The position numbers and the translations under genes were made by a program. From Treponemataceae bacterium (GTDB lineage Bacteria; Spirochaetota; Spirochaetia; Treponematales; Rectinemataceae), in contig CAXXHO010000005.1 in NCBI GenBank assembly GCA_963667725.2, forward strand, positions 160,001 through 224,000: a stretch of DNA of 64,000 nucleotides, read 5' to 3'. Below the pieces are notes generated by a model. That model was not told the DNA's origin and searched no databases. It worked only from the letters and a program-made list of their open reading frames with translations. Below are positions 35,872 through 55,448 of the stretch, in pieces; position 1 is the first letter of the stretch; each line of letters begins with the position of its first letter.

Positions 35872-36669
35872 GTGCGAAAGATGACATTCATGCTTACGGT
35901 ATTCGCCATGGTCTTCGCGATGGTCTTCGCCGCCGGCGCCCAAACCGCCAAGCTTCCCGACCTCAAGGGAAGAAAAATCATCGCCGTGACCGAAAACGCC
36001 TATCTCCCCCTCAATTTCGTCGACGCTAAATCAGGCAAGGCCATGGGATGGGAATACGACGCGGTGAACGAGATCGGCAAGCGTCTCAACGCCAAGATCG
36101 AGTGGAAGATCACTTCCTGGGACACCATGATCCAGGCCGTGCGCGACGGACAGTTCGACGTGGGCATGGACGGCATCACCATAACGGACGAAAGGAAGGG
36201 CCAGGTCGACTTCTCCAGCCCCTACATGGTGAGCCAGCAGTTCATGCTCGTGCGCGCCAGCGAAAACCGCTTCCAGGACGAAAAGGCCTTCTCGGCCAAC
36301 CCCAAACTCCTCATCGGGGCCCAGGCGGGCACCACGAACTTCTATGTGGCCGTCTACAGCGTCCTCGACGGCGACGAAGCCAATCCCCGCATCAAGCTTT
36401 TCGAGACCTTCGGCGCCACGGTCCAGGCCTTGATAGCCGGAGACATCGATATGGTGCTTATGGACGCCGCCTCCAGCAAGGGCTACATCGGCGCCTACCC
36501 CAACAAGCTGAAATCGGTCGGCGGCGCCCTCGGCACCGAAGAATTCGGATTCATCTTCAAGAAAGGTTCCGACCTCGTCGGCCCCTTCAACGCGGCCATC
36601 GCCGCCCTCAAGGCCGAGGGATTCCTCGACAGGCTTAACACGAAGTGGTTCTTCGAGTACAAGCCTTAA
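35872..36669 (+). CDS. Polar amino acid ABC transporter substrate-binding protein
   Basis: Signal peptide, ENAYLPLNF, GITITDERKGQVDFSSPY. Confidence 0.9.
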   Translation: MRKMTFMLTVFAMVFAMVFAAGAQTAKLPDLKGRKIIAVTENAYLPLNFVDAKSGKAMGWEYDAVNEIGKRLNAKIEWKITSWDTMIQAVRDGQFDVGMDGITITDERKGQVDFSSPYMVSQQFMLVRASENRFQDEKAFSANPKLLIGAQAGTTNFYVAVYSVLDGDEANPRIKLFETFGATVQALIAGDIDMVLMDAASSKGYIGAYPNKLKSVGGALGTEEFGFIFKKGSDLVGPFNAAIAALKAEGFLDRLNTKWFFEYKP

Positions 36670-36721: not shown

Positions 36722-36778
36722 CCCTGTCTGTGCCAGTAATGGCACAGACAGGGGATTTTCTGTGCTAAATAATGAACA
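36722..36778 (+). promoter_or_regulatory. Tandem candidate enhancer-binding-protein sites; the first lies within a 14-bp hairpin that may also act as a terminator
   Basis: TGTGC-N8-GCACA at 36729-36746 and TGTGC-N8-GAACA at 36761-36778, 32 bp apart. Confidence 0.55.
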
Positions 36779-36900: not shown

Positions 36901-36916
36901 TGGCATGGGCTTTGCT
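36901..36916 (+). promoter_or_regulatory. Sigma-54 (-24/-12) promoter
   Basis: TGGCATGGGCTTTGCT, GG-N10-GC, 43 bp before the SBP start codon with an AAGGAGG RBS between. Confidence 0.85.
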
Positions 36917-36959: not shown

Positions 36960-37892
36960 ATGAAACGAATCGTTGGCGTTCTTTTGTGCGCGTTGGTGCT
37001 GATAACCGGTGTTTCCGCCCAAGCCAAGAAGAAGCAGGTCGCCGTCTGTCTTCCTGGATCAGTCGAGTTCTTCGCCGTGGAGCGCAAAGGCATGGACAAG
37101 GCAGCCGCCGAGTTCAACCTTCAGCTCACCTATTCCGACGCCGAATGGGACGCGGGAAAACAACTGAACCAGGTGGAGAATTTCGTGGCCAAGGGCGTGG
37201 ACGCCATCATGCTCTGCTCCCGCGATCCTCTCGCCCTGCTTCCGGCGGTAAAAATGTGCAACGAAGCCAAGATCCCCCTCATTACGTTCACCAACACGCT
37301 CGGCTCCGACAAGAACGGACAGTATCCCGGCGTCGTTACCTTCATTGGCATCAACGACCTCTCCTATGGCACCATGATGGGCAAGATGGCCAAACAGCTC
37401 CTGGGCGACAGAGCCGCGAACATCGTCCTCATCGAGGGTGAGCCTGGAACCAGCGCCCAGCGCATGAGAAACGACGGTTTCAGGGCCGAACTCGCGAACA
37501 GCAAGTACAAGATCATCTACAGCCAGGCGATTCCCGGCTGGACCAAGGAAGGATCGCTCGCCGCCATGGAAGCCTTTCTCCAGAAAGGACAGGATTTCGA
37601 TCTCGTCTCAGCCGAATGGACGGACGGCGCGGTCGCGGCTGCCAAAGCCATCAGGGAAGCCGGACTCAAGGGGAAATACATCACCGCCCTCGAGTATTCC
37701 AAGGCGCTCCAGGCCGAGATCAAGGCTGGAAGCGTCAACATGACGGCCTACGCTTCCATCATAGACATGGGTTATCTGGCAGTCCAGAAAACCGCCGAAT
37801 TCCTCTCCGGAAAGAAGATCGATTCCTACATCGAAGTCATTCCCGTCATCGTCGACAAGAACAATGTGAGCAAACACGTTCCCGAGATGTGA
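36960..37892 (+). CDS. Sugar ABC transporter substrate-binding protein (RbsB-like)
   Basis: Signal peptide, DAEWDAGKQLNQVENF, IEGEPGTSAQRMRNDGF. Confidence 0.9.
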   Translation: MKRIVGVLLCALVLITGVSAQAKKKQVAVCLPGSVEFFAVERKGMDKAAAEFNLQLTYSDAEWDAGKQLNQVENFVAKGVDAIMLCSRDPLALLPAVKMCNEAKIPLITFTNTLGSDKNGQYPGVVTFIGINDLSYGTMMGKMAKQLLGDRAANIVLIEGEPGTSAQRMRNDGFRAELANSKYKIIYSQAIPGWTKEGSLAAMEAFLQKGQDFDLVSAEWTDGAVAAAKAIREAGLKGKYITALEYSKALQAEIKAGSVNMTAYASIIDMGYLAVQKTAEFLSGKKIDSYIEVIPVIVDKNNVSKHVPEM

Positions 37893-37957: not shown

Positions 37958-39223
37958 ATGGAACCTAAATCGATACGAAACGGCGGTAAAATCGCCGCGC
38001 AGCTGATGGTCGGCCCCGAACAGCTGGCCTATTTCGGCGAAGCCGGAATACTGGCATGTCTGGACTATGCGCTCGATGTCCTCGCTCCCCGGGAGCTGAT
38101 TCTTTCCATAACCGATTCATCGAGCGACCTGGCTCGAAAGATCACGGAGCGCTGTGACAAGGTGGGTACAAGGGTTTCTCTATGGGTGATGGTTTTCGCC
38201 GACCGCCCCGCCGGCCTGTCTTCTTTTCCCCATGTCCAGGACGCTGAAGGCAGGACGGGATACGGCGCCACCGGCGCCTGGGAGAATATCGGAAAGGGCG
38301 ACGAAAAGTTCCTATTCTATTGTCCCAGCGCCCTGGATAAGGACGAGAAAGGCATAGAATCCGCGCTTCGGGCGGCGAAATCCATTGGCGCGCGGGGCAT
38401 CTTCCTCGACCGGATACGATACCCCTCCCCCGCCAACGGCTTCGAATTCATGAGCGCCTGTTCCTGCCCCCTATGCAGGGAAGCCTTTCGCGCCTGGAGC
38501 GGCGAAAAATGGCCAGACCTAGCTTCGCTCTTTGTCCGGCATGCGGCTCATGGCGTCGGCGGCCCTCAAGCCTTCGTCGAGAGCGCCGAGAAAGTACTTC
38601 AATTCCGCTCGCGGATGGTCAATAACGCGGTGGCGCGTTACGCCGATGCCGCTCACGCGGAGGGCCTCAGCGTCGGTCTGGATCTCTTCGCGCCCGCGTT
38701 GGCCGGTTTCGTCGGCCAAGATTATCATTCACTGTCGCGCCACGCGGATTTCATGAAACCGATGCTCTACTGCAAAGCCTGGGCGCCGGCAGGCATGCCC
38801 CTGGAATTTTTCCTTTTAATGAAGGGGCTTGAAGAATCAGGCATCGACGCATCAACAGCCGTAAGCTTCGTTTCCAAGTTCTCCGGAATAGACCGAGAAT
38901 ACCTGGATGCCGTGCGCCGGAAAGGAAATTTCCCGGCTTCGCTCGCCGCATCAGAACTGCTCCGCTGTCAGCGGGAAATAGATCCCGCAGCGGCTCCAAA
39001 ACCAGAAATCTACGCGGGCATCGAGCTGGTTCAGCACGAAGCCTACGATACTCAAATCGACGACGGTGTACGCGACTCGTACCTGGAAAGCCTCTCGGGC
39101 CAAAACATCGCCGTATGCTGGAATATATTGTACGTGCCCAAGCGGCATATCGAGGCGATAGCCTCGATGGACGCTATCGCGTCGATCGACGCGATTTCAC
39201 CGCATCACGAGGACTCTAAATGA
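37958..39223 (+). CDS. Hypothetical protein, possibly a glycoside-hydrolase-like TIM barrel
   Basis: FYCPS...GIFLDRIRYPSP...CSCPLC...DFMKPMLY pattern; located inside a sugar ABC operon. Confidence 0.6.
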   Translation: MEPKSIRNGGKIAAQLMVGPEQLAYFGEAGILACLDYALDVLAPRELILSITDSSSDLARKITERCDKVGTRVSLWVMVFADRPAGLSSFPHVQDAEGRTGYGATGAWENIGKGDEKFLFYCPSALDKDEKGIESALRAAKSIGARGIFLDRIRYPSPANGFEFMSACSCPLCREAFRAWSGEKWPDLASLFVRHAAHGVGGPQAFVESAEKVLQFRSRMVNNAVARYADAAHAEGLSVGLDLFAPALAGFVGQDYHSLSRHADFMKPMLYCKAWAPAGMPLEFFLLMKGLEESGIDASTAVSFVSKFSGIDREYLDAVRRKGNFPASLAASELLRCQREIDPAAAPKPEIYAGIELVQHEAYDTQIDDGVRDSYLESLSGQNIAVCWNILYVPKRHIEAIASMDAIASIDAISPHHEDSK

Positions 39224-40764
39224 ACATTCAAGAAAATTTGCGAACGCCAGAGGGCGGAAATGCGGCTGCCCCTCCCGTCATTCTCGCGATGAAGAACATT
39301 TCAAAAAGCTTCCTGGGCGTCCGGGTATTGGACAACGTCGATTTCTATCTCAGAAAAGGCGAAGTCGTCGCTTTTCTCGGCGCCAACGGAGCGGGAAAAT
39401 CGACGCTCATGAAGATTCTCTCCGGCGTCTATAACGCGGACAGCGGCCAGATATTCCTTCACGACAAACCGGTTCAATTCAGCAAACCGATCCATGCCTA
39501 CAGGGCGGGAATCAGCGTCGTGCACCAGGAATCGAGCCTCATTCCCACCCTGACCATCATCGAAAATCTATTTCTCGGCCGTGAATCCACAAAGGGTTCG
39601 GGGATACTGAACGGCAAGCTCATGCAAGCTGAATACGAAAAGCTCTGCGAACGTTTCGATTTGGATATTCCCTCCGCGACGAAGGTACGCGATCTCAGCC
39701 CCGCGCAGAAAAAAATGGCCGAGATAATGAAGGCGGTGTCGCGCAACTGCAGCATCATCATAATGGATGAGCCCACCGACGCTCTCAGCTCCCAGGAAAC
39801 CGCCCTCCTGTTCAAAACCGTCGGTGACCTTAGGCGCGAGGGCATGAGCATCGTTTTCATAACGCATTTTCTGGACGAAGTAAAAAGCATCGCCGACAGC
39901 GCGACGGTGATCCGCGACGGGAAAATAGTCGCCGAGCGCGTCTCGCCTCTTCTGCCGATCAAGGAAATAGTCACCTTGATGCTCGGCAAGGAAGTGGCGG
40001 AACGAAAACCCTTCGTAAGGGCTCATGGCGAAAAGGAAGAGCTGGTGGTAAAGAACCTCGGCCGCCGCGCCGAATTTTCGGATATTTCATTCGAACTTCA
40101 CGCGGGCGAAGTGCTCGGAATCGCCGGCGTCGTGGGATCGGGCAAGACGGAACTGGCGAGGACACTCTCAGGCGCATCGGTCAGCCACAGCGGTTCCATG
40201 ACACTGGAGAACAGACCGATACAGCTCCGTTCCCCATACGATGGGGTCAAGCATGGTATCGGCATGGCGCCGGAAGACCGTAAAACGCAGGGACTGATCC
40301 TCGACCATGACATTCAAGGCAATATTTCCCTTTCATCCCTGCCCAGCATCGTCAAGTTCGGATGCATCAACGCAAAAAAGGAAAAAAGCCGTACGATGTC
40401 TGTGGCCGCCCAACTTTCGATAAAGTTCGCCAGCCTTGATCAGCGGGTAAAATTCCTGAGCGGCGGCAACCAGCAGAAATGCGTTCTGGCTCGATGGCTG
40501 CTGGCCTCCCCGAAGGTTCTTATTCTGGATGAGCCCACGCGCGGCATCGATGTCGCCACGAAGGAACAGATCTACGCGACGGTGCGCGATCTCGCGTCGA
40601 AAGGAAAATCCATCATCTATTTCTCTGGAGATCCCGCCGAACTCCTTGTGGTCTCCGACAGGGTGTTGGTTATGCAAAAAGGGAAGATCAAGCGTTCTTA
40701 CGCGATTCCGCCATCTGAAGATATACTACTAAAAGATATGATTGAGGTGAACAATGAGCGGTAA
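39220..40764 (+). CDS. Sugar ABC transporter ATP-binding protein (RbsA/MglA-type, two NBDs)
   Basis: GANGAGKST, MDEPT, FITH; second NBD with PEDRK, LSGGNQQK, LDEPTRGIDV. Confidence 0.95.
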   Translation: MNIQENLRTPEGGNAAAPPVILAMKNISKSFLGVRVLDNVDFYLRKGEVVAFLGANGAGKSTLMKILSGVYNADSGQIFLHDKPVQFSKPIHAYRAGISVVHQESSLIPTLTIIENLFLGRESTKGSGILNGKLMQAEYEKLCERFDLDIPSATKVRDLSPAQKKMAEIMKAVSRNCSIIIMDEPTDALSSQETALLFKTVGDLRREGMSIVFITHFLDEVKSIADSATVIRDGKIVAERVSPLLPIKEIVTLMLGKEVAERKPFVRAHGEKEELVVKNLGRRAEFSDISFELHAGEVLGIAGVVGSGKTELARTLSGASVSHSGSMTLENRPIQLRSPYDGVKHGIGMAPEDRKTQGLILDHDIQGNISLSSLPSIVKFGCINAKKEKSRTMSVAAQLSIKFASLDQRVKFLSGGNQQKCVLARWLLASPKVLILDEPTRGIDVATKEQIYATVRDLASKGKSIIYFSGDPAELLVVSDRVLVMQKGKIKRSYAIPPSEDILLKDMIEVNNER

Positions 40765-41764
40765 CAATATCGATGCTAAGGCAGCGGCAACCATTCAAGC
40801 GGGCGGTATGGATGCCTCAAAGAAGAGGGGGCAGTACTACAAAGAAATTTTAAAACGCTACGGCCTGCTCATCAGCTTCTTTGTGCTCTCGCTGGGGATA
40901 TCCCTGCTGACGCCCAACTTCCTCTCCTCCAGGAACCTGCTCAACATCCTCAGGCAGAGTACGATCGTCGGCATCATGGCCATAGGCACCACCTTCGTCA
41001 TCATCGGTGGCGGATTCGATATCTCGGTCGGATCGGTGCTTGCCTTGTCCGCGGCGTTGGCGCTCGGGCTCCAAGGCTCGATGCACTGGGCCTTGGCCGC
41101 CACGATCGCTATCCTCGCCGGCGCGCTGATAGGTCTCTTCAATGGTATTCTCGCCGCGAAGATTCACATCGTTCCCATGATTGCGACGTTGGGTACCTCC
41201 ACCATCGTACGCGGCCTCGTCTACCTCTATACCGGCGGCTACCCCATCAACGGTCAGCAGCCAGCCTTCGAGGTGATCGGCTCCGGCTATCTGTGGGGCA
41301 TCCCCGTACCCGTCATCATAATGATCGCGCTTGTCGTCATTTTTCAATTCATTCTCTCCAAGACGCAGCTCGGCCGCTACTGCTGCGCCGTCGGCGGCAA
41401 CAAGGAAGCGACGAGGCTCGCCGGCGTCTCCGTGGACTTCTACCACGTCATGACTTTCCTCATCGGCGGTCTCATGGCGGGCATCTCGGGCGTCGTCTAT
41501 GCGTCGCGGCTTTCGTCGGCCACGCCCCTAGCGGGGCAGAATTACGACATGGACGCCATCGCGGCGGTGGTCATCGGCGGCACATCGGTTTCAGGCGGCG
41601 AAGGCACGGTTCTCGGCGCCATGATAGGCGTCCTTCTTCTCACCGTCGTCACCAACGCCTTCAATCTCCTCGGCGTGCCGGTCTTCATCCAGTACGTCAT
41701 AAAGGGCCTGATCATCCTGGTCGTCGTGGGCATCGACTCCTACTCCAAGAAGAGGCCCCGCTAA
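40754..41764 (+). CDS. Sugar ABC transporter permease (RbsC-like)
   Basis: GGFDISVGS, AVGGNKEATRLAGV, AIAAVVIGGTSVSGGEG. Confidence 0.95.
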   Translation: MSGNNIDAKAAATIQAGGMDASKKRGQYYKEILKRYGLLISFFVLSLGISLLTPNFLSSRNLLNILRQSTIVGIMAIGTTFVIIGGGFDISVGSVLALSAALALGLQGSMHWALAATIAILAGALIGLFNGILAAKIHIVPMIATLGTSTIVRGLVYLYTGGYPINGQQPAFEVIGSGYLWGIPVPVIIMIALVVIFQFILSKTQLGRYCCAVGGNKEATRLAGVSVDFYHVMTFLIGGLMAGISGVVYASRLSSATPLAGQNYDMDAIAAVVIGGTSVSGGEGTVLGAMIGVLLLTVVTNAFNLLGVPVFIQYVIKGLIILVVVGIDSYSKKRPR

Positions 41765-41815: not shown

Positions 41816-43195
41816 ATGAAAACGAAGGTACTTATCGTCGACGACGAGCAGCCCATGAGGGCTTCGCTCGGCGAACTCTTGCAGAGTGAAGGCTACCAGA
41901 CGATGTTGGCGGACGGCGCATCTTCCGCGCTCGAACAGACCAGCGACGGCCATCCCGACATAGCCATCGTGGACGTGCGCATGCCGGGCCGCGGCGGCCT
42001 AGACCTCATCCAGGAGCTCCGCGATATATCCCCCAACCTCAGGATTTTCATGATGACAGGCTACCCGTCCGTGGAAACCGCGGTGTTGGCCATGAAATAC
42101 GGCGCAATGGACTTTTTCACCAAGCCGCTGGATTTCAGGAAGCTGCGTGACCAGCTGAATCAATGCAAAATGGCAGGCGCCAATCAGCAGCCGGAAACGC
42201 CCAATCATGCCGTCGGCGCCCTCTACGGAGAAAGCCTGGTCATTCGCGAACTGCGGGAATCGATCGAGCGCATCGCCCCCACGGAAGCCTCCGTCATCAT
42301 CACGGGCGAAAGCGGCACGGGAAAAGAATTAGTAGCCGAAGCCATACACAGCCAATCACTGCGTTCCGCCCATCCTTTCATGAAGATCAACTGCGCGGCG
42401 ATACCTGACACACTTCTCGAAAGCGAGCTGTTCGGCTATGAAAAAGGTGCCTTCACGGGCGCTCTTGCCCGAAAAGCGGGGCTTTTCGAAAGCGCCAGTC
42501 AGGGCAGCGTCTTCCTCGATGAAATCGGGGATATGGACATCCGCCTTCAGTCGAAACTCCTTCATATACTTCAGGGAGGGGAATTCCGCAGGTTGGGCGG
42601 CACAAAGGACCTCAACGCCAATACCCGGATCATATCGGCGACCAACCAGAACCTGCATACGCTCATCGAAAAAGGCATGTTCAGGGAAGACCTTTATTAC
42701 CGGCTCTCGGTGATATGCATCCAGACTCCCCCGCTTCGCGAGCATATAGAGGACATTCCCGCGCTCGCGAAACGCTTCGTCGCCGATTTTTCGCGTTCAT
42801 ACGGCAAGGAAGAACCCCTCATCGACGATGAGTTCCTGGCTATCCTCGAGGCGCAGCCCTGGCCCGGAAATGTCCGTGAGCTGAAAAACTGCATCGAGCG
42901 CGCCATCATCTTCTGTGACGGTCGCCATCTCGGCACTCGCCATCTTCCGCAGCAGTACAAGATGGGAATTGGCAGAAATGTGGTCGTTTCCTGTCTCGAT
43001 GAATCGAAGGAATCGGATGCATCCCGGAATTCGATGAGCGAGGCGCGGCAGGACCTGGAACGCAGCATGATTCTTGAAGCGCTCGACAAGGCAAAGGGAA
43101 ACAGGACGGAGGCCGCCAGGCTGCTTGGAATACCGCGACGAACCCTCTATAACAAGCTCGAAAGGCTTGGCATGGACGACGATGCAAGGTCTTGA
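41816..43195 (+). CDS. Sigma-54-dependent NtrC-family response regulator
   Basis: Receiver (VDDE, DVRMPG), AAA+ (GESGTGKE, GAFTGA, FLDEIG), WPGNVREL, Fis-type HTH. Confidence 0.95.
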   Translation: MKTKVLIVDDEQPMRASLGELLQSEGYQTMLADGASSALEQTSDGHPDIAIVDVRMPGRGGLDLIQELRDISPNLRIFMMTGYPSVETAVLAMKYGAMDFFTKPLDFRKLRDQLNQCKMAGANQQPETPNHAVGALYGESLVIRELRESIERIAPTEASVIITGESGTGKELVAEAIHSQSLRSAHPFMKINCAAIPDTLLESELFGYEKGAFTGALARKAGLFESASQGSVFLDEIGDMDIRLQSKLLHILQGGEFRRLGGTKDLNANTRIISATNQNLHTLIEKGMFREDLYYRLSVICIQTPPLREHIEDIPALAKRFVADFSRSYGKEEPLIDDEFLAILEAQPWPGNVRELKNCIERAIIFCDGRHLGTRHLPQQYKMGIGRNVVVSCLDESKESDASRNSMSEARQDLERSMILEALDKAKGNRTEAARLLGIPRRTLYNKLERLGMDDDARS

Positions 43196-45056
43196 GCTCC
43201 GTGGCGTCACGGCTTCCTACAGGGAGACGATAGCCCTCGATGAGTTCAGCCTGATAGCGGCGAGCGGCGAAGTGCATGCCATCATCGGGGAACGCAGGGC
43301 GGGAAAATCATGTATCGTTTCCCTCCTCGAAGGAAAGATGACCCTCAATAAAGGCAAGATTCTCATCGATGGCATCCCCCTGGCGAAACGCAATCCAAAG
43401 ATTATGGCCCAGGCTGGTATTGGCGTTTTCCATCAAACGCAAAACATCATTCCCACACTTTTGCCCTGGGAAAACATCATGGCCGGGAGGATGCCCATCG
43501 GTTTTTCATCGGGCAACAAGCGCGATGAAACTGAGGCCTTTATCCTGACGCTCTGCGAAAAGTGGAGTCTCCGTCCAGATCTGCGCCTGCCTATGCATCG
43601 ACTGACGAGAATAGAATCCACCGTTATCGAGCTTGGGCGAGCCTTGGCGTTCAATCCAAGGATCCTTATCCTGGATGAGCCTTCCGGTCGCTTTACCGCC
43701 GATGAGATGCAGGTCCTCTATTCCGTGCTGGCGGAAAGGCGGAGCGGCAATGAGGCAGTTCTCTATGCGGCCTCCAATGTCGACGAGGTGCTGAGGATCG
43801 CCGATATCATCTCGATTATAAAAGCGGGGAAAATTGTGGAAACCCAGCCGGCAAGAAGCCTGGACCGAGAGGACATTGTCGATCTCGCCTATTCTTTCAA
43901 CGAGTCGAGGGAAGAGCTGTTCAGCAAGAACATTCGCCTGTTGAAATACAAGAAGTACAATGAGGAAATAGTCTCCAATCTCCCGCTGGGAACGGTCTTT
44001 TTCGACGGGGAAGGCGAAATATACCTTTCCAATCAATCAGCCTGCGACATTATCTGCACGGATCCAAAAACGTTGATTCCCGCGTCAAAGGCGGGAGAAC
44101 CTGCTGCGGCGATTCCACTTACCGCCTTGGCGCTGCGGAATGGTTTCGGCGATAAACGACTGGCGCTGATCATGGATTCCATAAGATCGGGAGTATCGGC
44201 GAAATGGAAACAGTGGCCGACGGCAAACGGCAGATTCGTCAACGTGATGACCTACCCCTTCCACGATAGTTTGAAGCAGCTATTCGGAACCATCCTCGTA
44301 CTTCAGGACGTAACGGAAGAGAGGGCGACGCGGGACTATCTGGCAAGCCTTGACCGAACTTCGTCCATCGCCCAGCTGGCGACGGGCATAGTTCACGAAG
44401 TGAACAATCCTCTCGGCATCATTTCCAACTATGTGGAACTCCTGCTCATGAAGACAAACGACGAGTATGCTCGTGAAAGGCTCGAAATTATCCGAAATGA
44501 AATAAAGCGAATTCATGGAAGCATGCTCAATCTCCTGTCCTTTTCGAGCGTCGATTCGTCAGCATTGAGCCCGCATGACATCAACGCGGTCATCAAGGAT
44601 TCGCTTGTCCTGCTTGAATACGAAGCGGAACGTCTCGGCATCAGCCTGGAAGCTGATATACCTAGCGAACCGGTGATGCTGCGCATAGATCCCGCCAGAA
44701 TCAAACAAGTCCTGATCAATCTCCTCATGAATGCGCTCGATGTTGCGGGACGATGTGGTTCCATAGTAGTCCGACTTCGAAAGCAGGCCGATAATAGCGC
44801 CCTCCTGCAGGTACAGGACAGCGGCCCCGGCATCCCGCCCGCCAAGATCGCCAGTCTTTTCACGCCCTTCCTGAGCGAAAAAAGCGGAAGCGGACATGCC
44901 GGACTTGGTCTTTCAATCTGCAAGCATATAACGGAAGTCCATGGCGGCAGGATTTGGTGCGAAAGCGAACCGGGCAATACCGTCTTTTTCATTGAACTAC
45001 CCTGCGAGGGACCAATGCAGGTAAAAGGACCGCATTATGCGCAGACCGCGAATTAA
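43182..45056 (+). CDS. Fusion of a degenerate sugar-ABC ATPase domain, PAS-like domain and histidine kinase
   Basis: GEVHAIIGERRAGKS, ILILDEPS; then IVSNLPLGTVFFD (PAS-like), HEVNNPL, INLLMNA, DSGPGIP, GLGLSIC. Confidence 0.85.
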   Translation: MQGLELRGVTASYRETIALDEFSLIAASGEVHAIIGERRAGKSCIVSLLEGKMTLNKGKILIDGIPLAKRNPKIMAQAGIGVFHQTQNIIPTLLPWENIMAGRMPIGFSSGNKRDETEAFILTLCEKWSLRPDLRLPMHRLTRIESTVIELGRALAFNPRILILDEPSGRFTADEMQVLYSVLAERRSGNEAVLYAASNVDEVLRIADIISIIKAGKIVETQPARSLDREDIVDLAYSFNESREELFSKNIRLLKYKKYNEEIVSNLPLGTVFFDGEGEIYLSNQSACDIICTDPKTLIPASKAGEPAAAIPLTALALRNGFGDKRLALIMDSIRSGVSAKWKQWPTANGRFVNVMTYPFHDSLKQLFGTILVLQDVTEERATRDYLASLDRTSSIAQLATGIVHEVNNPLGIISNYVELLLMKTNDEYARERLEIIRNEIKRIHGSMLNLLSFSSVDSSALSPHDINAVIKDSLVLLEYEAERLGISLEADIPSEPVMLRIDPARIKQVLINLLMNALDVAGRCGSIVVRLRKQADNSALLQVQDSGPGIPPAKIASLFTPFLSEKSGSGHAGLGLSICKHITEVHGGRIWCESEPGNTVFFIELPCEGPMQVKGPHYAQTAN

Positions 45057-45852
45057 GCAGACGGCGCTGGATCGCATCCCCTGGTGGCTCGTCGCCATCG
45101 TAGGCCTAGGGGGCTGGCTCCTCGCGTCCGCCATGGCCACGGCCGATTATCGCGTCATATTCGGCGCCGTATCCCGCGGCCTCGGCGTCACGCTGATGGT
45201 ATCGCTCATCGCGTATGCCGCATCGATACTGTTCGGTCTAGGGCTGGGGCTTCTGCGCGCTTCGCGGCTTCGCGCCGCACGCGAAGCCGCGACCTTCTAC
45301 ATCGAGCTGGTACGCGGCCTTCCAATGCTCGTCATTCTGTACTACATAGCATTCGTTGGCGCTCCCGCCCTAGCTCAAGCGCTCAACGTCATCCTGACCC
45401 CACTCATCGCGACGGGGCTCATCGGCCGCGTCGAAGCGCGCAGCTTCGATTTCGCCACGCGCGCCGTCCTGGCCCTCACCCTCGGCTACTCGGCTTTCAT
45501 CGCGGAAATCTTCCGCGCGGGCATAGAGAGCGTGGACAAAGGCCAGGTCGAAGCCGCCGAAGCCCTCGGGATGTCACATCTTCAGGTGATGTGCCGCATC
45601 GTTCTGCCCCAAGCCATCAAGAATGTCCTGCCCGCCCTCGGCAACGAATTCGTCGCCATCATCAAGGATTCCTCCCTGGTCTCGGCCCTCGGCGTCCAGG
45701 ATATCACCCAGCTGGGCAAGGTCTATGCCGCGTCCACTTTCAAATTTTTCGAGACTTACAACGCCGTCGCGTTCTTCTACCTCTGCCTCACGCTCAGCCT
45801 ATCCCTTCTCGTGCGAGCCCTTGAAGCTCGCCTGAAAACGGGAAAACGCTGA
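45037..45852 (+). CDS. Polar amino acid ABC transporter permease
   Basis: YIELVRGLPMLV, AEIFRAGIESVDKGQVEAAEALG (EAA loop), IIKDSSL. Confidence 0.93.
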   Translation: MRRPRIKQTALDRIPWWLVAIVGLGGWLLASAMATADYRVIFGAVSRGLGVTLMVSLIAYAASILFGLGLGLLRASRLRAAREAATFYIELVRGLPMLVILYYIAFVGAPALAQALNVILTPLIATGLIGRVEARSFDFATRAVLALTLGYSAFIAEIFRAGIESVDKGQVEAAEALGMSHLQVMCRIVLPQAIKNVLPALGNEFVAIIKDSSLVSALGVQDITQLGKVYAASTFKFFETYNAVAFFYLCLTLSLSLLVRALEARLKTGKR

Positions 45853-48984: not shown

Positions 48985-50247
48985 CTAAAGAATCCACATC
49001 ACCGAGGCCGGCACATACGTGATGATCATCAAGACCAGGATCATCGCGCCCAGGAAGGGCCAGGTTTCCTTGATCGTATCCTTGAGGTCGGCCTTCAGCA
49101 CGCGCGACGCCGTGAAGAGCGTCAGCCCGAAAGGAGGTGTGAGCATGCCGATAGCGAGGTTGGTCGTCAGAATGATGCCGAAATGCACGAGGTCGATCTG
49201 CAGCACTTCGAGTATGGGAAGCAGGAGGGGCACGAGGATGATCTGTATCGAGCCCGATTCCATGAACATGCCTGCTATCAGGACGATTATATTGACGACA
49301 AATAGAAGCGTGTACTTGTTCATGCCCAAGGAGAGTACGGCCTCGAAAGCTTTCTGGGGAATCTGCATGTAAACCATGGTCCAGGCGAATAGGGAGGCTG
49401 CCGCCACGATGATCATGATGCCCGCCGAACTGATAGCCGACTGGAGGAAGATGCCGGGCAACTCCTTCAGCTTTATTTCCTTGAACACGAAAACGCCGAT
49501 TATTATTGAATAGATGACGGCCGCGACCGCGGATTCGGTGGGGGTGAAGACGCCGAGGAATACGCCGCCCACGATGATGACGGGCGTGCCGAGGGCGACA
49601 AGGGTGTCGATCACGACTTCCTTCACTGACTTGGTGCCTAAGCCTTTGGATTCGCGCGGGATCCTGTGTTTTTTCGCGGTGAAAAAGGTGACGATCATCA
49701 AGGCGCCGCCGACCATGACTCCGGCCGGAAATCCGACTCTATAGAGCTGGCCTACAGAAGCCTTGGAGAGGGTTCCGTAGATGATAAAGGCTATGCTCGG
49801 GGGGATTATGATGCCTATCGGGCTCGCCGAACCCACGATGGCCGACGCGTAGGCGGGTTTGTATCCGTGGTCCTTGAAGCCCGAAATCATGACGCCGCCT
49901 ATGGCGGCCGCCGTGGCGATGCCAGAGCCCGAGATGGCGGCGAAGAGCATGCAGGCAAGGATGGCCGTCATGCCCATGCCTCCCGTCACCTTCGATACGA
50001 AGAGGCCCGCGAAACCGATGAGGCGCTTCGCCAGGCCGCCTTTGTTCATGAGGTCGCCGGCGAGGATGAAGAAGGGAATGGCAAGCAAAGCCGCGGAATC
50101 GATGCTCGCGAAAAAGCGCTGTACCGCCGTTGTGGCATTGATGCCCGAAGCGAAAATGGTGACGAGGGCCGAGCCGCCCATGGCCGTGACGATGGGAGCG
50201 CCCACAGCGAGAAGCATGAGGACGGAACCGAAGAGCAGCAGGGTCAT
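48985..50247 (-). CDS. dctM: TRAP transporter large permease
   Basis: LAIPFFILAG, FAAISGS, IIPPSI, TPTES, GMLTPPFG. Confidence 0.95.
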   Translation of the reverse strand: MTLLLFGSVLMLLAVGAPIVTAMGGSALVTIFASGINATTAVQRFFASIDSAALLAIPFFILAGDLMNKGGLAKRLIGFAGLFVSKVTGGMGMTAILACMLFAAISGSGIATAAAIGGVMISGFKDHGYKPAYASAIVGSASPIGIIIPPSIAFIIYGTLSKASVGQLYRVGFPAGVMVGGALMIVTFFTAKKHRIPRESKGLGTKSVKEVVIDTLVALGTPVIIVGGVFLGVFTPTESAVAAVIYSIIIGVFVFKEIKLKELPGIFLQSAISSAGIMIIVAAASLFAWTMVYMQIPQKAFEAVLSLGMNKYTLLFVVNIIVLIAGMFMESGSIQIILVPLLLPILEVLQIDLVHFGIILTTNLAIGMLTPPFGLTLFTASRVLKADLKDTIKETWPFLGAMILVLMIITYVPASVMWIL

Positions 50248-50741
50248 GCCTTAGCCTCCTGTACGGACTTCGCTTCCTGCACTCCCTTGAGAATTCCTAC
50301 GAAGGTCTGGAATATGAAGACTCCGAAGGCAGGCGGGAAAATCCAGTATACCCAACGTTTGGGTATGCGCATGTTGGTGCTCACCTGGGTGCCGGCGAGC
50401 TTGATGAATTTAAAGGCGATGAAAAACATCGCGACGAAGAATATGAGGGAGAGGAGTTGCTGAAAAACGAGGAGCCAAGCCTTGGGAGCCTTGGGCAGGT
50501 ACTCCTCGAGCACGCTCACGTTGATATGGCTCCTGCGCTTGGCTATCATCGCCGCGCCGATCATGACTGCCCAGATATCGGCGTAGCGAGTGAGCTCTTC
50601 CGTCCACATCAGGCCCGTTCCGAAAACATATCTCAACAAAATCTGCGTGGCATAGGTGGCCGTCATCAACATGAACAGCGTGACGATGACCCAGCCGCAT
50701 ATCTTGTCAAGGATGTCACTGGTTCTCAGCAACGCTTTCAT
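50244..50741 (-). CDS. dctQ: TRAP transporter small permease
   Basis: Four TM helices, RYVF...WTEELTRY, HINV. Confidence 0.92.
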   Translation of the reverse strand: MKALLRTSDILDKICGWVIVTLFMLMTATYATQILLRYVFGTGLMWTEELTRYADIWAVMIGAAMIAKRRSHINVSVLEEYLPKAPKAWLLVFQQLLSLIFFVAMFFIAFKFIKLAGTQVSTNMRIPKRWVYWIFPPAFGVFIFQTFVGILKGVQEAKSVQEAKA

Positions 50742-50837
50742 ATCGATACTCCTTGCGTTAGGCATGCGAGAAAAGGCTGTCCTGGAAGTTGGTCGCTACC
50801 GGGGCAGCCCCTCAAGAAAATTATTTACTGGTCTCGA

Positions 50838-51809
50838 TCACTTAATCGCCAGGATGGCGTCATAGAATTTTTTCACGTCGCCCTTGGCGTATTTGTTGAT
50901 GACGGGCTGGACTGCCTTGACGAAGGGTTCGGTGTCGAGGCTGTTGAAGACCATGCCCTTGGAGATGAGTTCGGCTTTGGCTTTTGCCTCGTTGCCTTTC
51001 TGGTCGAGTCCGAGCTTGTAGGCCGCGTCCGTGGCGGCTTTCTGGATGACGGCCTGATCCGCGGCGGGGAGCTTCTTGAACCAATCTCCCGAGGCCAGGA
51101 GCGTGGCCATGGCGAAGACATGTCCCGTCTCGGAGACATATTTCTGTACTTCGTTGATCTTGTAGTCGCGGGTAGTGATGATGGTGTTCTCATGACTGTT
51201 GACGGTGCCCTGCTGGAGCGCGGTGTAGACTTCGGACCATGCCATGGCCTGAGCGTTGGCGCCCATCGCCTTGAAGGCTTCGACGAGAACGGGGCTTTCG
51301 CTGATGCGCATCTTGAGACCCTTGAGGTCTTCGGGCTTGGTGATGGGGAATTTGGCGTTCGTCACGTGGCGGTAGCCGCGGGGCATCAGGGAGAGCGACT
51401 TCAGGCCGTACTGATCGGAGAGGTCGAGGAGATCCCTGGCTGTCTTGGAAGCGATGAATTTCTCGACATGGTCCCAGCTCCTGAACAGGAAGGGCATATC
51501 GAGGACGTTGATGGCGTTGATGAACTGGCTGGCGTCGCCAGAAGTGATGACGGCGAACTGGAGGTTGCCGGCCTGCATGGCTTCCATGAGGGGGCCGGAA
51601 TCGCCGAGCTGGCCGCCGCCATAGATGACGATCTTGTACCTGTTGCCGGTGCCGGCTTCGACCTGCGCCTTGAATTCCTTTGCCCAGTTGTCGTAGGCGG
51701 TGTTGGGCGCGGCGATGTGGCCGAGCTTGAGTTCCTTCTGGGCGAAAGCGCCGGCGGTTGCGCCGAACATCATAGCGGCGACGAGCAGAGCGATAATCCC
51801 TTTCTTCAT
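50838..51809 (-). CDS. dctP: TRAP transporter substrate-binding protein
   Basis: Signal peptide, GGGQLG, DLKGLKMRI, EVYTALQQGTVNSHEN. Confidence 0.93.
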   Translation of the reverse strand: MKKGIIALLVAAMMFGATAGAFAQKELKLGHIAAPNTAYDNWAKEFKAQVEAGTGNRYKIVIYGGGQLGDSGPLMEAMQAGNLQFAVITSGDASQFINAINVLDMPFLFRSWDHVEKFIASKTARDLLDLSDQYGLKSLSLMPRGYRHVTNAKFPITKPEDLKGLKMRISESPVLVEAFKAMGANAQAMAWSEVYTALQQGTVNSHENTIITTRDYKINEVQKYVSETGHVFAMATLLASGDWFKKLPAADQAVIQKAATDAAYKLGLDQKGNEAKAKAELISKGMVFNSLDTEPFVKAVQPVINKYAKGDVKKFYDAILAIK

Positions 51810-51832
51810 GATGATCCTCCTTGAATACCTTA

Positions 51833-51855
51833 AATGTGCCACTATGTAGCACATT
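51833..51855. promoter_or_regulatory. Palindromic operator upstream of dctP
   Basis: AAT-GTGCCACT-A-TGTAGCAC-ATT; near-copy of the site at 55513-55529. Confidence 0.65.
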
Positions 51856-51909
51856 GTTCACATACAAAGTCGCGGACCGACAGGTTTTCCCGCCGTCGCC
51901 TCGCTCAGC

Positions 51910-52935
51910 TCAGACCGTCTTTCCCGCGGCCTTGGCTAAGTCGTAGGCCACCTGGATGATCCAGTCTTCCTGACCGCCCACGGCCTTGCGTTTCCCAAGC
52001 TCGATGAGGACGTCGCGCACGTCGACGCCGAAACGCTCGGCGCCCTTCTTAGCGTGGAGCATGAAGCTGGAATAGACGCCCGCGTAGCCCATGATAAGGG
52101 AGTTGGAATCGTGCCGAGGGAGAGGTTTGCCCTTCGCCGCCACGAGGGGGAGGAGGACTTTCTCCGCCGCGTCCATCGTTTTGAAAAGGTCGGCGGCCAC
52201 ATCGGCGCCGGACTTCTTCAGTGCGCCTACAAGCATCTCAGTGGCCGCGTTGCCGGCCCCGGCGCCCATGCCTCCCAGGGAACCGTCGATGTAGGTGGCT
52301 CCGGCCTTGACGGCGGCGAGCGAATTGGCGACGGCGCAGCCCAGGTTGTCGTGGGCATGGTGGCCGACGGGAATCTTGAGCGCGGCTTTCAGGGCCGCGA
52401 CGCGTTCGCCTACCTGGTCGGGCAGAAGGGCTCCTGCCGAATCCGTGGCGTAGACGACGTCGGCGCCGTAGGATTCCATGATGAGGGCCTGCTCCACGAG
52501 CTTGGCCGTGTCGGCCATATGGGCCATCATGAGGAAGCCCACGACGAACATGCCCATTTTCTTGGCCGCTTTGATGTACTCTTCGGAAACGTCGGCTTCG
52601 GTGACGTGGGTAGCCACGCGCACGACGCTGGCGCCCCGGCGCTGGGCTTCCTCGAGGAGATCGAGGGTGGCGATGCCGGGCACGAGGAGGACGGCGATTT
52701 TAGCCTTCTTCACTACCCTGGCCGCCGCCTGGATGAGGTCGAGCTCATTTTCGAGTGAAAAGCCGTAGGTGAGGGAAGCGCCGCCGAGACCGTCGCCGTG
52801 GTTCACCTCGATGATGTCGACGCCGGCATCGTCGAGGGCAGCCGCTACTTTGGCCACATCGGCGCTCGTATACTGATGCGAGACGGAGTGGCTGCCGTCC
52901 CTCAGGCTCGTGTCGGTGATATAGACTTTGCTCAT
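51910..52935 (-). CDS. dmpG: 4-hydroxy-2-oxovalerate aldolase
   Basis: [48 protein letters not shown]. Confidence 0.95.
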
Positions 52936-53807
52936 CGTTTGCCTTCCTGAATGCGTTGGGCGAATTTCTCCGCCACCGCCACCGCGGCCGCGTTGATGAT
53001 GTCCAGGTTGCCCGTATGCTTGGGCAGGAAATCGCCCAGGCCTTCCACTTCGATGACGGTGGTGACCGTATCGCCCTGGAGGATGGGTTCGACGAGGAAG
53101 CGGTAGCCGGGAACGTAAGTTTTTACGTCGGCGAGAATTAGATCTATCGAGGCTCGGATGGCCGTCAGGTCGGGCCTGCGAACCCTGCAGAGGATGGTGT
53201 TGCGCATCAGGATGGGGGGATCGGCGGGATTGAGGACGATGATGGCCTTGGCCTGGTCGGCGCCGCCGATGACCTTGAGCGCCTTCGTCGTCGTCTCGAT
53301 GAACTCATTGAGGTTCTGCCTTGTTCCCGGCCCCGCGCTCCTGGAGGAGATCGAGGAGACGACTTCCGCGTAATAGACGTCTGCGGCGCGGTTGATGGCG
53401 TACACGATGGGCGAGGTGGCCTGTCCGGCGCAGGTGACCATGTTGACGTTGTCGAGCTTGAATATTTCCTCGCTGAGATTGACCGAGGGCACGACATAGG
53501 GGCCAATGGCGGCAGGGGTCAGGTCGATGGCGATCTTACCAGCGGCCTTGAGCCTGGGCGCATGGATGAGGTGGGGTCCTGCCCCGGTGGCGTCGAACAC
53601 TATCCTTATGTCATCCACCGCAAGCATCTCGTCGATGCCTTTGATGGTCGTGGGGATGCCGAAACCCTTGGCGATCTCAATGCCGGGGGATTCCTTGACG
53701 CCCACCACATAGGCTACTTCGAGGAAGGGACTCCTCCTCAGCTTGACGAGAAGGTCGGTGCCGATATTGCCGGGGCCGATGATGGCCGCCTTGATCTTTT
53801 GTGCCAT
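52932..53807 (-). CDS. mhpF: Acetaldehyde dehydrogenase (acylating)
   Basis: [45 protein letters not shown]. Confidence 0.95.
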
Positions 53808-53820
53808 TGTTCCTTTCCTT

Positions 53821-54609
53821 TTAATAGAAAGCGATTTCGACGGAGCCGAGCGTCGAATAATCCGCCCTGAAGCGATCGCCCTTGCCGGCGCTTATGGCCG
53901 CGGAAAGTGCCCCAGAAAGAATCACTTCGCCCTTTTTGAGCATGGTGCCGTACTTCCTCATGGAATTGGCCAGCCAGGCCACGCAGTAGGCGGGATCGCC
54001 AAGGACGTCGGTGCCTTTGCCGCCATTCTTGCGTTCGTCATTCAGGGAAAAATCCATAACCTCGGCCTTGAGGTCGATTTCGGCGATCTTCTTCCGCACC
54101 CTGCCCAGCACGTACCTGCCCGAGGACGCGTTGTCGGAGACCGTGTCGCAGTAGCCGATCTTCCAGTTGCCGATGCGGCTGTCCACGATCTCGAGAGCCG
54201 CGACGACGTAGTCGGTCGCGGCGAGCACATCGGCCGCCGTGATCTCGCCGGCCATATCGAGGTCGCGGGCGAGGACAAAGGCGATCTCCGCCTCCACCTT
54301 GGGCTGGACCATGGTGGCGCGCTCGATCCGTTCGCCCGCCGCTTCCATGTCGGAGAAGAGGTGGCCGAAATCGGGCGTTGTGACGCCGAACATGTCCTGC
54401 ATGGGCTTGGAGGTGAGGCCGATCTTCTTGCCGGATATCTTTCTGCCCACGGCCAGCGCTCGCTCAACATTGCGCATCTGCACGGCATAGGCGTCGTCGA
54501 CGTCGATGGCCGGGTAGGTAACGGTAAGTTTCTCGATGGGGACGCAGGTCCTGGAAGCGGCGTCGAGGGCGTCGGCGGCCGCGACGATTTCAGCTGGTGC
54601 GAGAGCCAT
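53821..54609 (-). CDS. mhpD: 2-keto-4-pentenoate hydratase
   Basis: [38 protein letters not shown]. Confidence 0.92.
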
Positions 54610-55448
54610 CAGAAGACTCCCGCGAGGAAGGACTCGACCACGGCGCAGAAGCGCGCGTTCTGCTCGATCTGGGTCCAGTGGCCGCAGTTGCCGAACATGT
54701 GAAGCTGGGCATTGGGGATGAGCCTGAAAAGCATCTGGGAAGTCTCGACGGGAATTACCTGATCCTCCCGCCCGTGGATGATGAGTGTGTCGTGCTTGAT
54801 GGATGCTATGTCGGCCGAGGCGCAGGCCATGGCGTCCACGCTGCGCTGGCGAGGCGCCGGGAACATGGAGCCGAAGCTTTCCTGATAGCCAGGACGGATC
54901 GAGGCTTCGTAGCGCATCTTCACCAGATCCGGCGTGATGATAGCCTTGTTCGAGACGAAGTGATTGAGGGCTTCGGACATGGCCTCATAGGAAGGCTCAT
55001 AGCCCCAGACCTTGTCGAGCCACTCGGTGATGGGGAACTGGACGCCCATGGCTCCCATGAGGACGACCTTGCGGATGCGCTCGGGATAGTGGATGGCCAT
55101 GTAGAGGGCGAGGCCTCCCCCGAAGGAATTGCCCACCAGGTCGACCTTGTCCAGCTTCATGGCGTCGAGAAAATCCTTGAGCTGCTTGCCCCATACGTCC
55201 ATGTTGAACTGTATGCCAGTGGGCCGCTCGGTGTAACCGAAACCGATCATGTCCAGGGCGATGACCCTGCGGGTGGCAGCGAGCTTGGGAAGAACGAGGC
55301 GCCAGTTGGCCCAGGCGGTCACGCCGGGTCCGGAACCGTGGACGAAGACGACGGGATCGCCTGAACCCATGTCGTGATAATTGACGGCGATGCCGCCCGC
55401 CTGGATAGTCTTTCCGATCTCAGGATTGCCCTGTTTCTGTTCTGCCAT
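54609..55448 (-). CDS. Meta-cleavage product hydrolase (DmpD/XylF/BphD family)
   Basis: HGSGPGVTAWANWR, GNSFGG nucleophile, HGREDQVIP, CGHWTQIE. Confidence 0.93.
   Translation of the reverse strand: MAEQKQGNPEIGKTIQAGGIAVNYHDMGSGDPVVFVHGSGPGVTAWANWRLVLPKLAATRRVIALDMIGFGYTERPTGIQFNMDVWGKQLKDFLDAMKLDKVDLVGNSFGGGLALYMAIHYPERIRKVVLMGAMGVQFPITEWLDKVWGYEPSYEAMSEALNHFVSNKAIITPDLVKMRYEASIRPGYQESFGSMFPAPRQRSVDAMACASADIASIKHDTLIIHGREDQVIPVETSQMLFRLIPNAQLHMFGNCGHWTQIEQNARFCAVVESFLAGVF

Follow-up and report, generated by a model that had tools for sequence, protein, structure and literature searches.

A histidine kinase with an RbsA-derived ATPase domain in spirochaetes: a candidate sensor coupled to CUT2 sugar importers

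What might a histidine kinase sense when its input domain derives from the ATPase of a sugar importer, and which genes would it control? This question is raised by a gene on contig CAXXHO010000005.1 (assembly GCA_963667725.2) of a Treponemataceae bacterium placed by GTDB in the Rectinemataceae. The window, i.e., the whole stretch of 64,000 nucleotides that was analysed (positions 160,001 to 224,000 of the contig; coordinates below are those of the window), encodes at 43182..45056 a protein of 624 aa in which a nucleotide-binding domain (NBD) of the ATP-binding cassette (ABC) type is followed by a PAS-like domain and a histidine kinase core. This gene and its parts, as well as the operon genes and the promoter described below, lie on the forward strand. 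Our analysis points to a real and widespread sensor design, a variant of transporter-coupled sensing that is apparently undescribed; its output is well supported, while its input is what we infer.

The fusion of ABC_tran, PAS, HisKA and HATPase_c domains is real. The open reading frame (ORF) is uninterrupted, and its Pfam matches above cut-off were ABC_tran (residues 20-168; 58 bits against a cut-off of 25), HisKA (397-459) and HATPase_c (503-608). The kinase core (44370..45005) is of the HisKA type, with HATPase_c and the H-box histidine H405 (44394-44396), which is 100% conserved in an alignment of 197 relatives sharing <80% identity, the basis of all family residue statistics given here. 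An AlphaFold model (mean predicted local distance difference test, pLDDT, 83) contained the NBD, a helix at 243-265, a PAS-like fold at 270-376, and the DHp and CA domains; in the alignment, the PAS-like domain (residues 268-378; 43983..44315) was the least conserved part. The protein is predicted to have no transmembrane (TM) helix because the highest 19-residue hydropathy was only 1.28. The best NCBIfam matches of residues 4-236 were the CUT2 ATPases AraG, YtfR, RbsA and MglA, all below cut-off (for RbsA, 103 bits against 745). The kinase has one NBD, not the tandem NBDs of a CUT2 ATPase such as RbsA or MglA, and shares 27% identity with NBD1 and 25% with NBD2 of the neighbouring ATPase. An earlier sequence-only reading of the window had described a single 624-aa ORF without TM helix, with some 240 N-terminal residues resembling RbsA/MglA NBD1 and with a PAS-like segment before an intact HisKA/HATPase core, and all of this held up. 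It had also called for read mapping across the fusion point. One contig from run X2, which may be the source sample, covers the entire gene with 0 differences, and one from run X5, of a separate study, covers it with 29 differences and 0 gaps; with this gap-free coverage from two studies, an assembly artefact is excluded. The RNA-labelled run X21 gave short contigs only. The closest named relative (89% identity) is labelled Rectinemataceae, which makes a free-living spirochaete the probable host.

The ABC_tran, HisKA and HATPase_c fusion, for which that reading had likewise proposed a domain-architecture search, recurs as a large family and is no singleton. In the first sequence search, 18 of the best 120 rows were fusions, and a profile search led to 50 full-length clusters that were aligned. 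Of the first 150 representatives at 50% identity in a longer list of matches, 146 were new, and 138 of these 146 had both the NBD and the kinase core. Fusion matches occurred in at least 13 of 69 genomes of the host's family and in at least 14 of 401 genomes sampled across the phylum, both counts being lower bounds with 19 and 3 candidates per genome scored, respectively; up to 4 copies were found per genome. A genome scan by kinase H-box patterns gave 80 loci, 3 of them fusions, and the remaining loci were excluded from the counts. All 75 fusion NBDs fell in one clade (FastTree support 0.996) sister to RbsA NBD1, so the fusion is old and did not arise by copying the neighbouring ATPase; the sequences make up a large spirochaete family of single origin from RbsA NBD1. 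A recent duplication of the neighbouring ATPase had been considered and was rejected (90 bits versus 123 for another paralog). With this query, no full-length match of the spirochaete family was found in 121 Chloroflexota and 5 other genomes. The ESM Atlas holds Spirochaetota clusters with the same three Pfam domains, and the architecture is thus visible to automatic annotation; it also holds ABC_tran, GAF and HisKA clusters (166 and 64 members, commonest in Actinomycetota), possibly a third NBD-kinase fusion. In the closest orthologue (locus L141, 8995-10976) the gene is split by a frame change in the PAS region, either real or an assembly error, and the fusion gene of L232 also lies in two frames.

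The genes around the kinase suggest what it controls. Its start is overlapped by 14 nt by the gene of an NtrC/AtoC-type sigma-54 response regulator (REC-AAA+-helix-turn-helix; 41816..43195) with intact GAFTGA and Walker motifs. Before these lie genes for a CUT2 sugar-binding protein (RbsB-like; 36960..37892; Peripla_BP_4, 166 bits), whose best PDB matches were ribose- and monosaccharide-binding proteins, a predicted glycoside-hydrolase-like barrel protein (37961..39223), a two-NBD CUT2 ATPase as the RbsA-like motor (39220..40764; Walker A, Walker B and H-loop of NBD1 intact, LSGG in NBD2) and a CUT2 permease (RbsC-like; 40754..41764; BPD_transp_2, 159 bits). Upstream, we predicted a sigma-54 -24/-12 promoter (36901..36915) from its motif, which is conserved in five orthologous regions, and two enhancer sites. 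The first site (36729..36746), a perfect 7-4-7 palindrome, was kept in 5 orthologous upstream regions and had only one other match in the genome when up to 2 mismatches were allowed, and the second (36761..36778), a weaker copy 32 bp downstream, falls in conserved alignment columns. We take this tandem spacing to resemble that of NtrC-type enhancers. The genome also has rpoN (above cut-off), and by its motifs (-24/-12 element, tandem sites, GAFTGA activator and rpoN) the operon belongs to the enhancer-dependent sigma-54 type. With the general sigma-54 consensus and a threshold of our own choosing, we found sites at 28 of the 40 operon starts picked by hand, against 43 of 622 control ORFs, and in a repeat at 29 of 46 linked starts versus 12 of 437 control ORFs; in this genome, they preceded both linked operons (2/2) and 1 of 23 other two-NBD ATPases. 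These sites, together with the linkage to regulator and CUT2 genes, suggest that the regulator-kinase pair likely induces its own importer, and an output onto the importer operon is well supported by the comparative sequence data. The sequence-only reading had passed over this side of the locus, missing activator, promoter and enhancer.

CUT2 genes were present in 38 of 39 genome loci, so that the co-occurrence with RbsABC-like genes suggested for checking in the sequence-only reading is near universal, and the regulator lay directly upstream of 39 of 40 intact fusion genes, the exception being at a contig end. Among the best 80 of 249 metagenome loci, CUT2 genes were found in 60 and the regulator in 72, and all 20 loci lacking CUT2 genes had <1.7 kb of contig on one side. 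Within this genome, a CUT2 permease lay within 8 kb of both fusion kinases (2/2) versus 1 of 22 other kinases and 8% of random segments. The loci are partly kin, 43 single-permease loci collapsing to 15 non-redundant transporter types. The second NBD-kinase of this genome (L144; G000:C3:373253-376430) has GEHGAGKS and an intact H-loop; a sigma-54 regulator precedes it, and the pair is transcribed divergently from a CUT2 operon that has a sigma-54 site and encodes a binding protein, an aldehyde dehydrogenase, an ATPase, a permease and a RidA-like protein. A single-NBD ATPase only was found in L164, L178 and L205. Two loci (L028 and L143) hold two regulator-kinase pairs, each adjoining its own CUT2 operon, and in L133, L143 and L225 a second binding protein and permease without their own ATPase follow the importer, the permeases being 45-51% related. 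In the spirochaete family, a full extra permease adjoining the kinase was seen in L255 only; apparent extra permeases downstream in L182 and L232 turned out to be fragments.

The state of the NBD (residues 1-238; 43182..43895), assigned to RbsA NBD1 by identity, tree and motif alignment, bears on what it could do. Motif alignment located Walker A (GERRAGKS; 43287-43310), the signature position, where no signature is present (LTRIE; 43602-43616), Walker B (LILDEP; 43662-43679) and the H-loop (YAASNVDEV), in which the histidine is replaced by S198 (43773-43775). GERRAGKS still satisfies G-x4-G-K-[ST], its changes being confined to positions 38-39 (NG to RR), and K42, Q85 of the Q-loop, and D165 and E166 of Walker B are retained. 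Among the relatives, K42 was present in 97%, S/T43 in 97%, Q85 in 83%, D165 in 97%, E166 in 91% and H198 in 59%, and 100 of 197 had all five of K, Q, D, E and H. Loss of the H-loop histidine is confined to some lineages, and the window kinase sits on a derived branch with both RR and H to S. An SGG signature was found in none of the fusions (0/197), versus 2 of 46 RbsA NBD1 and 47 of 47 NBD2 sequences. Hydrolysis by the fusion NBD is probably disabled family-wide by this lack of LSGGQ, inherited from RbsA NBD1, and a kinase homodimer would have two sites capable of binding ATP, neither of them completed, because no NBD supplies the signature. The sequence-only reading had thus probably been right to call the domain catalytically impaired, and right that Walker B is kept, but it had traced the impairment to Walker A, whose core is conserved, and to the H-loop, whose loss is true of the window kinase and not of the family as a whole; the missing signature is the probable cause.

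Other changes are specific to the fusions. N38 has become H or R in 85% and G39 R in 31%, the D-loop has K or R at position 170 in 79%, P167 is present in 98% of RbsA NBD1 sequences and <11% of fusion NBDs, and the A-loop aromatic has fallen from 98% in NBD1 to ~62%. Positions 38, 39, 167 and 170 are on the two faces brought together in an NBD dimer, and the changes there are consistent with a reshaped homodimer interface. Purifying selection acts on the NBD (ratio of nonsynonymous to synonymous rates, dN/dS, 0.06-0.09), which has a mean identity of 30% versus 21% for the PAS domain, the most variable part. Between them, a conserved NBD exit helix and a linker helix of fixed length (residues 227-267; 43860..43982) form the predicted signal path, with dN/dS of 0-0.05. 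T221, D228, L232 and Y237 are near-invariant, and the conservation of the exit helix is new relative to RbsA NBD1. Y237 and P268 delimit a span of 32 residues in 166 of the 197 relatives and of 31-33 in 187; such a fixed length is what a signalling helix would need, unlike a loose tether.

For the input, we favour, with a probability of roughly 0.55, a reading in which the kinase, as a dimer, docks on the permease where the motor would otherwise sit and signals the sugar-loaded binding protein. The two NBDs of the dimer would bind the two coupling helices of the RbsC dimer; as neither supplies a signature, they would bind ATP and hydrolyse it slowly or never, acting as a conformational latch and not as a pump. 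NBD closure would shift the exit helix and linker, pass through the PAS domain and set kinase versus phosphatase activity. Arrival of the sugar-loaded binding protein would in this way switch on the sigma-54 activator of the importer operon, and the phosphorylated activator would bind the tandem enhancer and open the -24/-12 promoter of the whole operon, including its own genes.

Docking on the co-encoded permease or ATPase had been put forward in the sequence-only reading, together with a complex prediction for the permease at 40754 as a check. Two copies of RbsC with kinase residues 1-240 scored 0.55, while the best of 3 controls reached 0.00, the runs sharing at least 95% of contacts with a partner pLDDT of at least 78. 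Of 157 solved complexes 116 attained the pass mark, as did 2 of 215 mismatches, in a calibration set unlike this docking job, and at scores up to 0.60 only 18 solved complexes and both mismatches passed; the prediction lends docking weak support. By motif position, I90, L93 and R153 of the kinase presumably correspond to F90, L93 and R150 of LptB. At these putative groove positions, the hydrophobic or basic fraction in fusions versus RbsA NBD1 was 0.88 versus 0.96 (position 90), 0.93 versus 0.89 (93) and 0.83 versus 0.96 (153), so the fusions preserve the nature of the groove, which speaks for docking. The LptB groove positions F90, L93 and R150 are those given in PMC5082905. Comparative support for docking comes from the fixed-length linker and from Chloroflexota fusions with dedicated permeases.

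These Chloroflexota fusions form a second family, an NBD with HisKA_3 beside a REC-LuxR regulator (L288:6346-8004 and L311-L319), found in 9 of 121 Chloroflexota genomes. The P-loop lysine is kept in their NBDs, and the signature and H-loop histidine are missing in 10 of the 10 shown. In L314 and L317, the latter at a contig end, the kinase comes straight after a permease that is separate from a complete importer; L315 has a binding protein and permease with no motor ATPase in 19 kb. One fusion (P0350) had no PAS match. An adjacent second NBD-containing ORF of 565 aa was seen in L311. The best trees group the Chloroflexota fusion NBDs with single-NBD ATPases (0.968; Shimodaira-Hasegawa-like approximate likelihood ratio test 85), and both the tree topology and the difference in kinase class favour separate origins for the two families, although these are not established, since an approximately unbiased test does not reject one joint clade (p 0.204). 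We tentatively suggest that CUT2 importers might have become receptors at least twice, a kinase dimer with non-hydrolysing NBDs replacing the motor, in spirochaetes (RbsA NBD1, HisKA and sigma-54) and in Chloroflexota (single-NBD ATPase, HisKA_3 and LuxR).

Several observations weigh against docking. In a mirror-tree test over the 15 transporter types, the kinase NBD did not follow the neighbouring permease (r = -0.07, p 0.69), whereas RbsA NBD1 did (r = 0.37, p 0.02), and over the full 43 loci the partial correlation of NBD and permease given the kinase core was -0.06. Since loci of the spirochaete family nearly always include a motor ATPase and the window operon has one permease, the kinase has to compete with RbsA; with >15 other CUT2 permeases in this genome, the choice of its own permease also lacks an explanation. 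The residue after the Q-loop glutamine is E in 83% of NBD1s and 22% of fusions. Groove hydrophobicity may be structural in origin, the complex prediction may have passed from a general likeness to NBD-permease pairs, and the PAS domain that is present could sense alone. One locus (L177) has no CUT2 gene within ~9 kb, its genome holding one elsewhere. The earlier docking claim is thus backed weakly by complex prediction, indirectly by comparative data and not by co-divergence, and docking is what we infer from the whole.

Of the alternatives, the one that survives best, though we regard it as improbable, makes the NBD a free cytoplasmic sensor of a nucleotide or phosphometabolite (the ATP/ADP ratio, or a sugar phosphate bound through the extra basic residues), which would gate the kinase according to energy state with no transporter contact. 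The retained P-loop lysine, Walker B aspartate and Q-loop, the positive charge that the changes at 38, 39 and 170 add near the phosphates, and the missing co-divergence with permeases would all suit such a sensor. A global signal, however, fails to explain strict linkage to at least 15 CUT2 importer types with up to 4 copies per genome, the A-loop aromatic has been dropped from many fusions, and the Chloroflexota family has dedicated permeases. Next in rank, and likewise doubtful, the PAS domain might bind the imported sugar or the product of the hydrolase-like enzyme, the NBD merely tethering the kinase at the transporter exit or dimerising it. High PAS variability would be expected if ligands differ, and kinases have been reshuffled among transporter types; yet a tether needs neither a linker held at 31-33 residues nor near-invariant T221, D228, L232 and Y237, and P0350 has no PAS match. 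Less likely again is that the kinase NBD replaces RbsA NBD1 and pairs with RbsA NBD2 to form one active ATPase site, the kinase reading turnover directly. Its domain does derive from NBD1, the half that gives Walker A and B to the active site, half of the relatives (100/197) keep all five catalytic residues, and a two-NBD ATPase usually adjoins, but the D-loop that would face NBD2 has been remodelled at P167, the window kinase lacks the H-loop histidine, and the three loci named above offer only a single-NBD ATPase. A chance decaying fusion or assembly chimera, of which the two-frame genes of L141 and L232 might be taken as a sign, is refuted by hundreds of intact relatives in one clade, dN/dS <0.1 and the spanning contigs of two studies, leaving it a negligible probability.

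Beside docking, some features of the surroundings were recorded. The barrel protein (420 aa, unannotated; AlphaFold pLDDT 94.6) had the PgaB C-terminal domain and GH42 as top Foldseek matches, 23 of 65 relatives matched DUF4015 at E<=0.01, and C121, C167, C169 and C172 are conserved (252 homologues). The module is flanked by the gene of an amino-acid binding protein (35872-36669) and that of its permease (45037-45852), and looks inserted between them. L141 and L129 have the same amino-acid transporter flanks around the module. In a low-depth X2 contig, only 27 other letters separate 36665 from 45079, which suggests a relative without the module. Further downstream (48985-55448), TRAP transporter genes and meta-cleavage enzymes (aldolase, acetaldehyde dehydrogenase, hydratase and hydrolase) were named by eye.

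How does the design compare with known systems? It shares with RbsA/MglA NBD1, the source of the domain, the fold, Walker A/B, Q-loop and degenerate signature, and differs in having a kinase instead of NBD2, remodelled positions 38-39 and D-loop, and the new conserved exit helix. With the AtoS/NtrB kinases of AtoC/NtrC regulators it shares the PAS-DHp-CA core and sigma-54 output, while its scores are far below the equivalog cut-offs and its input is an NBD. The regulator of BceAB-BceS is not known to be of the sigma-54 type. As in BceAB-BceS, where an ABC transporter acts as co-sensor and its own operon is regulated by the system (PMC10314905; PMC7828314; PMC6978683), sensing would involve a transporter; BceS meets BceB via TM helices and not an NBD, and its transporter is a peptide-resistance pump, whereas our kinase has no TM helix and the permease is of the BPD_transp_2 family. 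In PstSCAB-PhoU-PhoR of Escherichia coli, a kinase that has no outside sensor responds to the conformational state of an ABC importer, and locked NBD states signal oppositely (PMC5775613). PhoR is membrane-anchored and reads a working ATPase through the adaptor PhoU, unlike the soluble fusion kinase with its own signature-less NBD, and the six-gene operon (binding protein, hydrolase-like protein, ATPase, permease, regulator and kinase) encodes neither PhoU nor Pst. Both systems bear out the earlier statement that transporter-kinase co-sensing is known (PMC10314905; PMC5775613). CbrA and CrbS also fuse a transporter part to a histidine kinase, there an SLC5 membrane domain via STAC and here a cytoplasmic ABC ATPase domain (PMC11109136). 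An NBD-kinase fusion was undescribed in the literature searched, most subscription journals and supplements lying outside it, and was absent from the available parts of the reviews and surveys PMC6978683, PMC7828314 and PMC1183210 and of the sigma-54 regulon survey PMC12316311; the sequence-only reading had likewise known of no characterised fused-NBD case, and none turned up.

In the described cases of ABC-linked sensing considered here, a separate kinase reads a working transporter; with an NBD of its own, the kinase would turn the coupling interface into a receptor interface. If the wider suggestion for spirochaetes and Chloroflexota is true, binding protein, permease dimer and kinase dimer would make up a receptor of a new class, with ABC coupling reversed so that it runs from membrane to NBD. 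The design would allow a direct test, separate from hydrolysis and transport, of whether the loaded binding protein is enough to close the NBDs. The permease family in question is one for which no PDB chain matched RbsC by sequence in the PDB copy searched. The design also offers modular sugar biosensors built from any binding protein and permease, and it would account for the way in which free-living spirochaetes turn on a single importer out of many with no periplasmic sensor.

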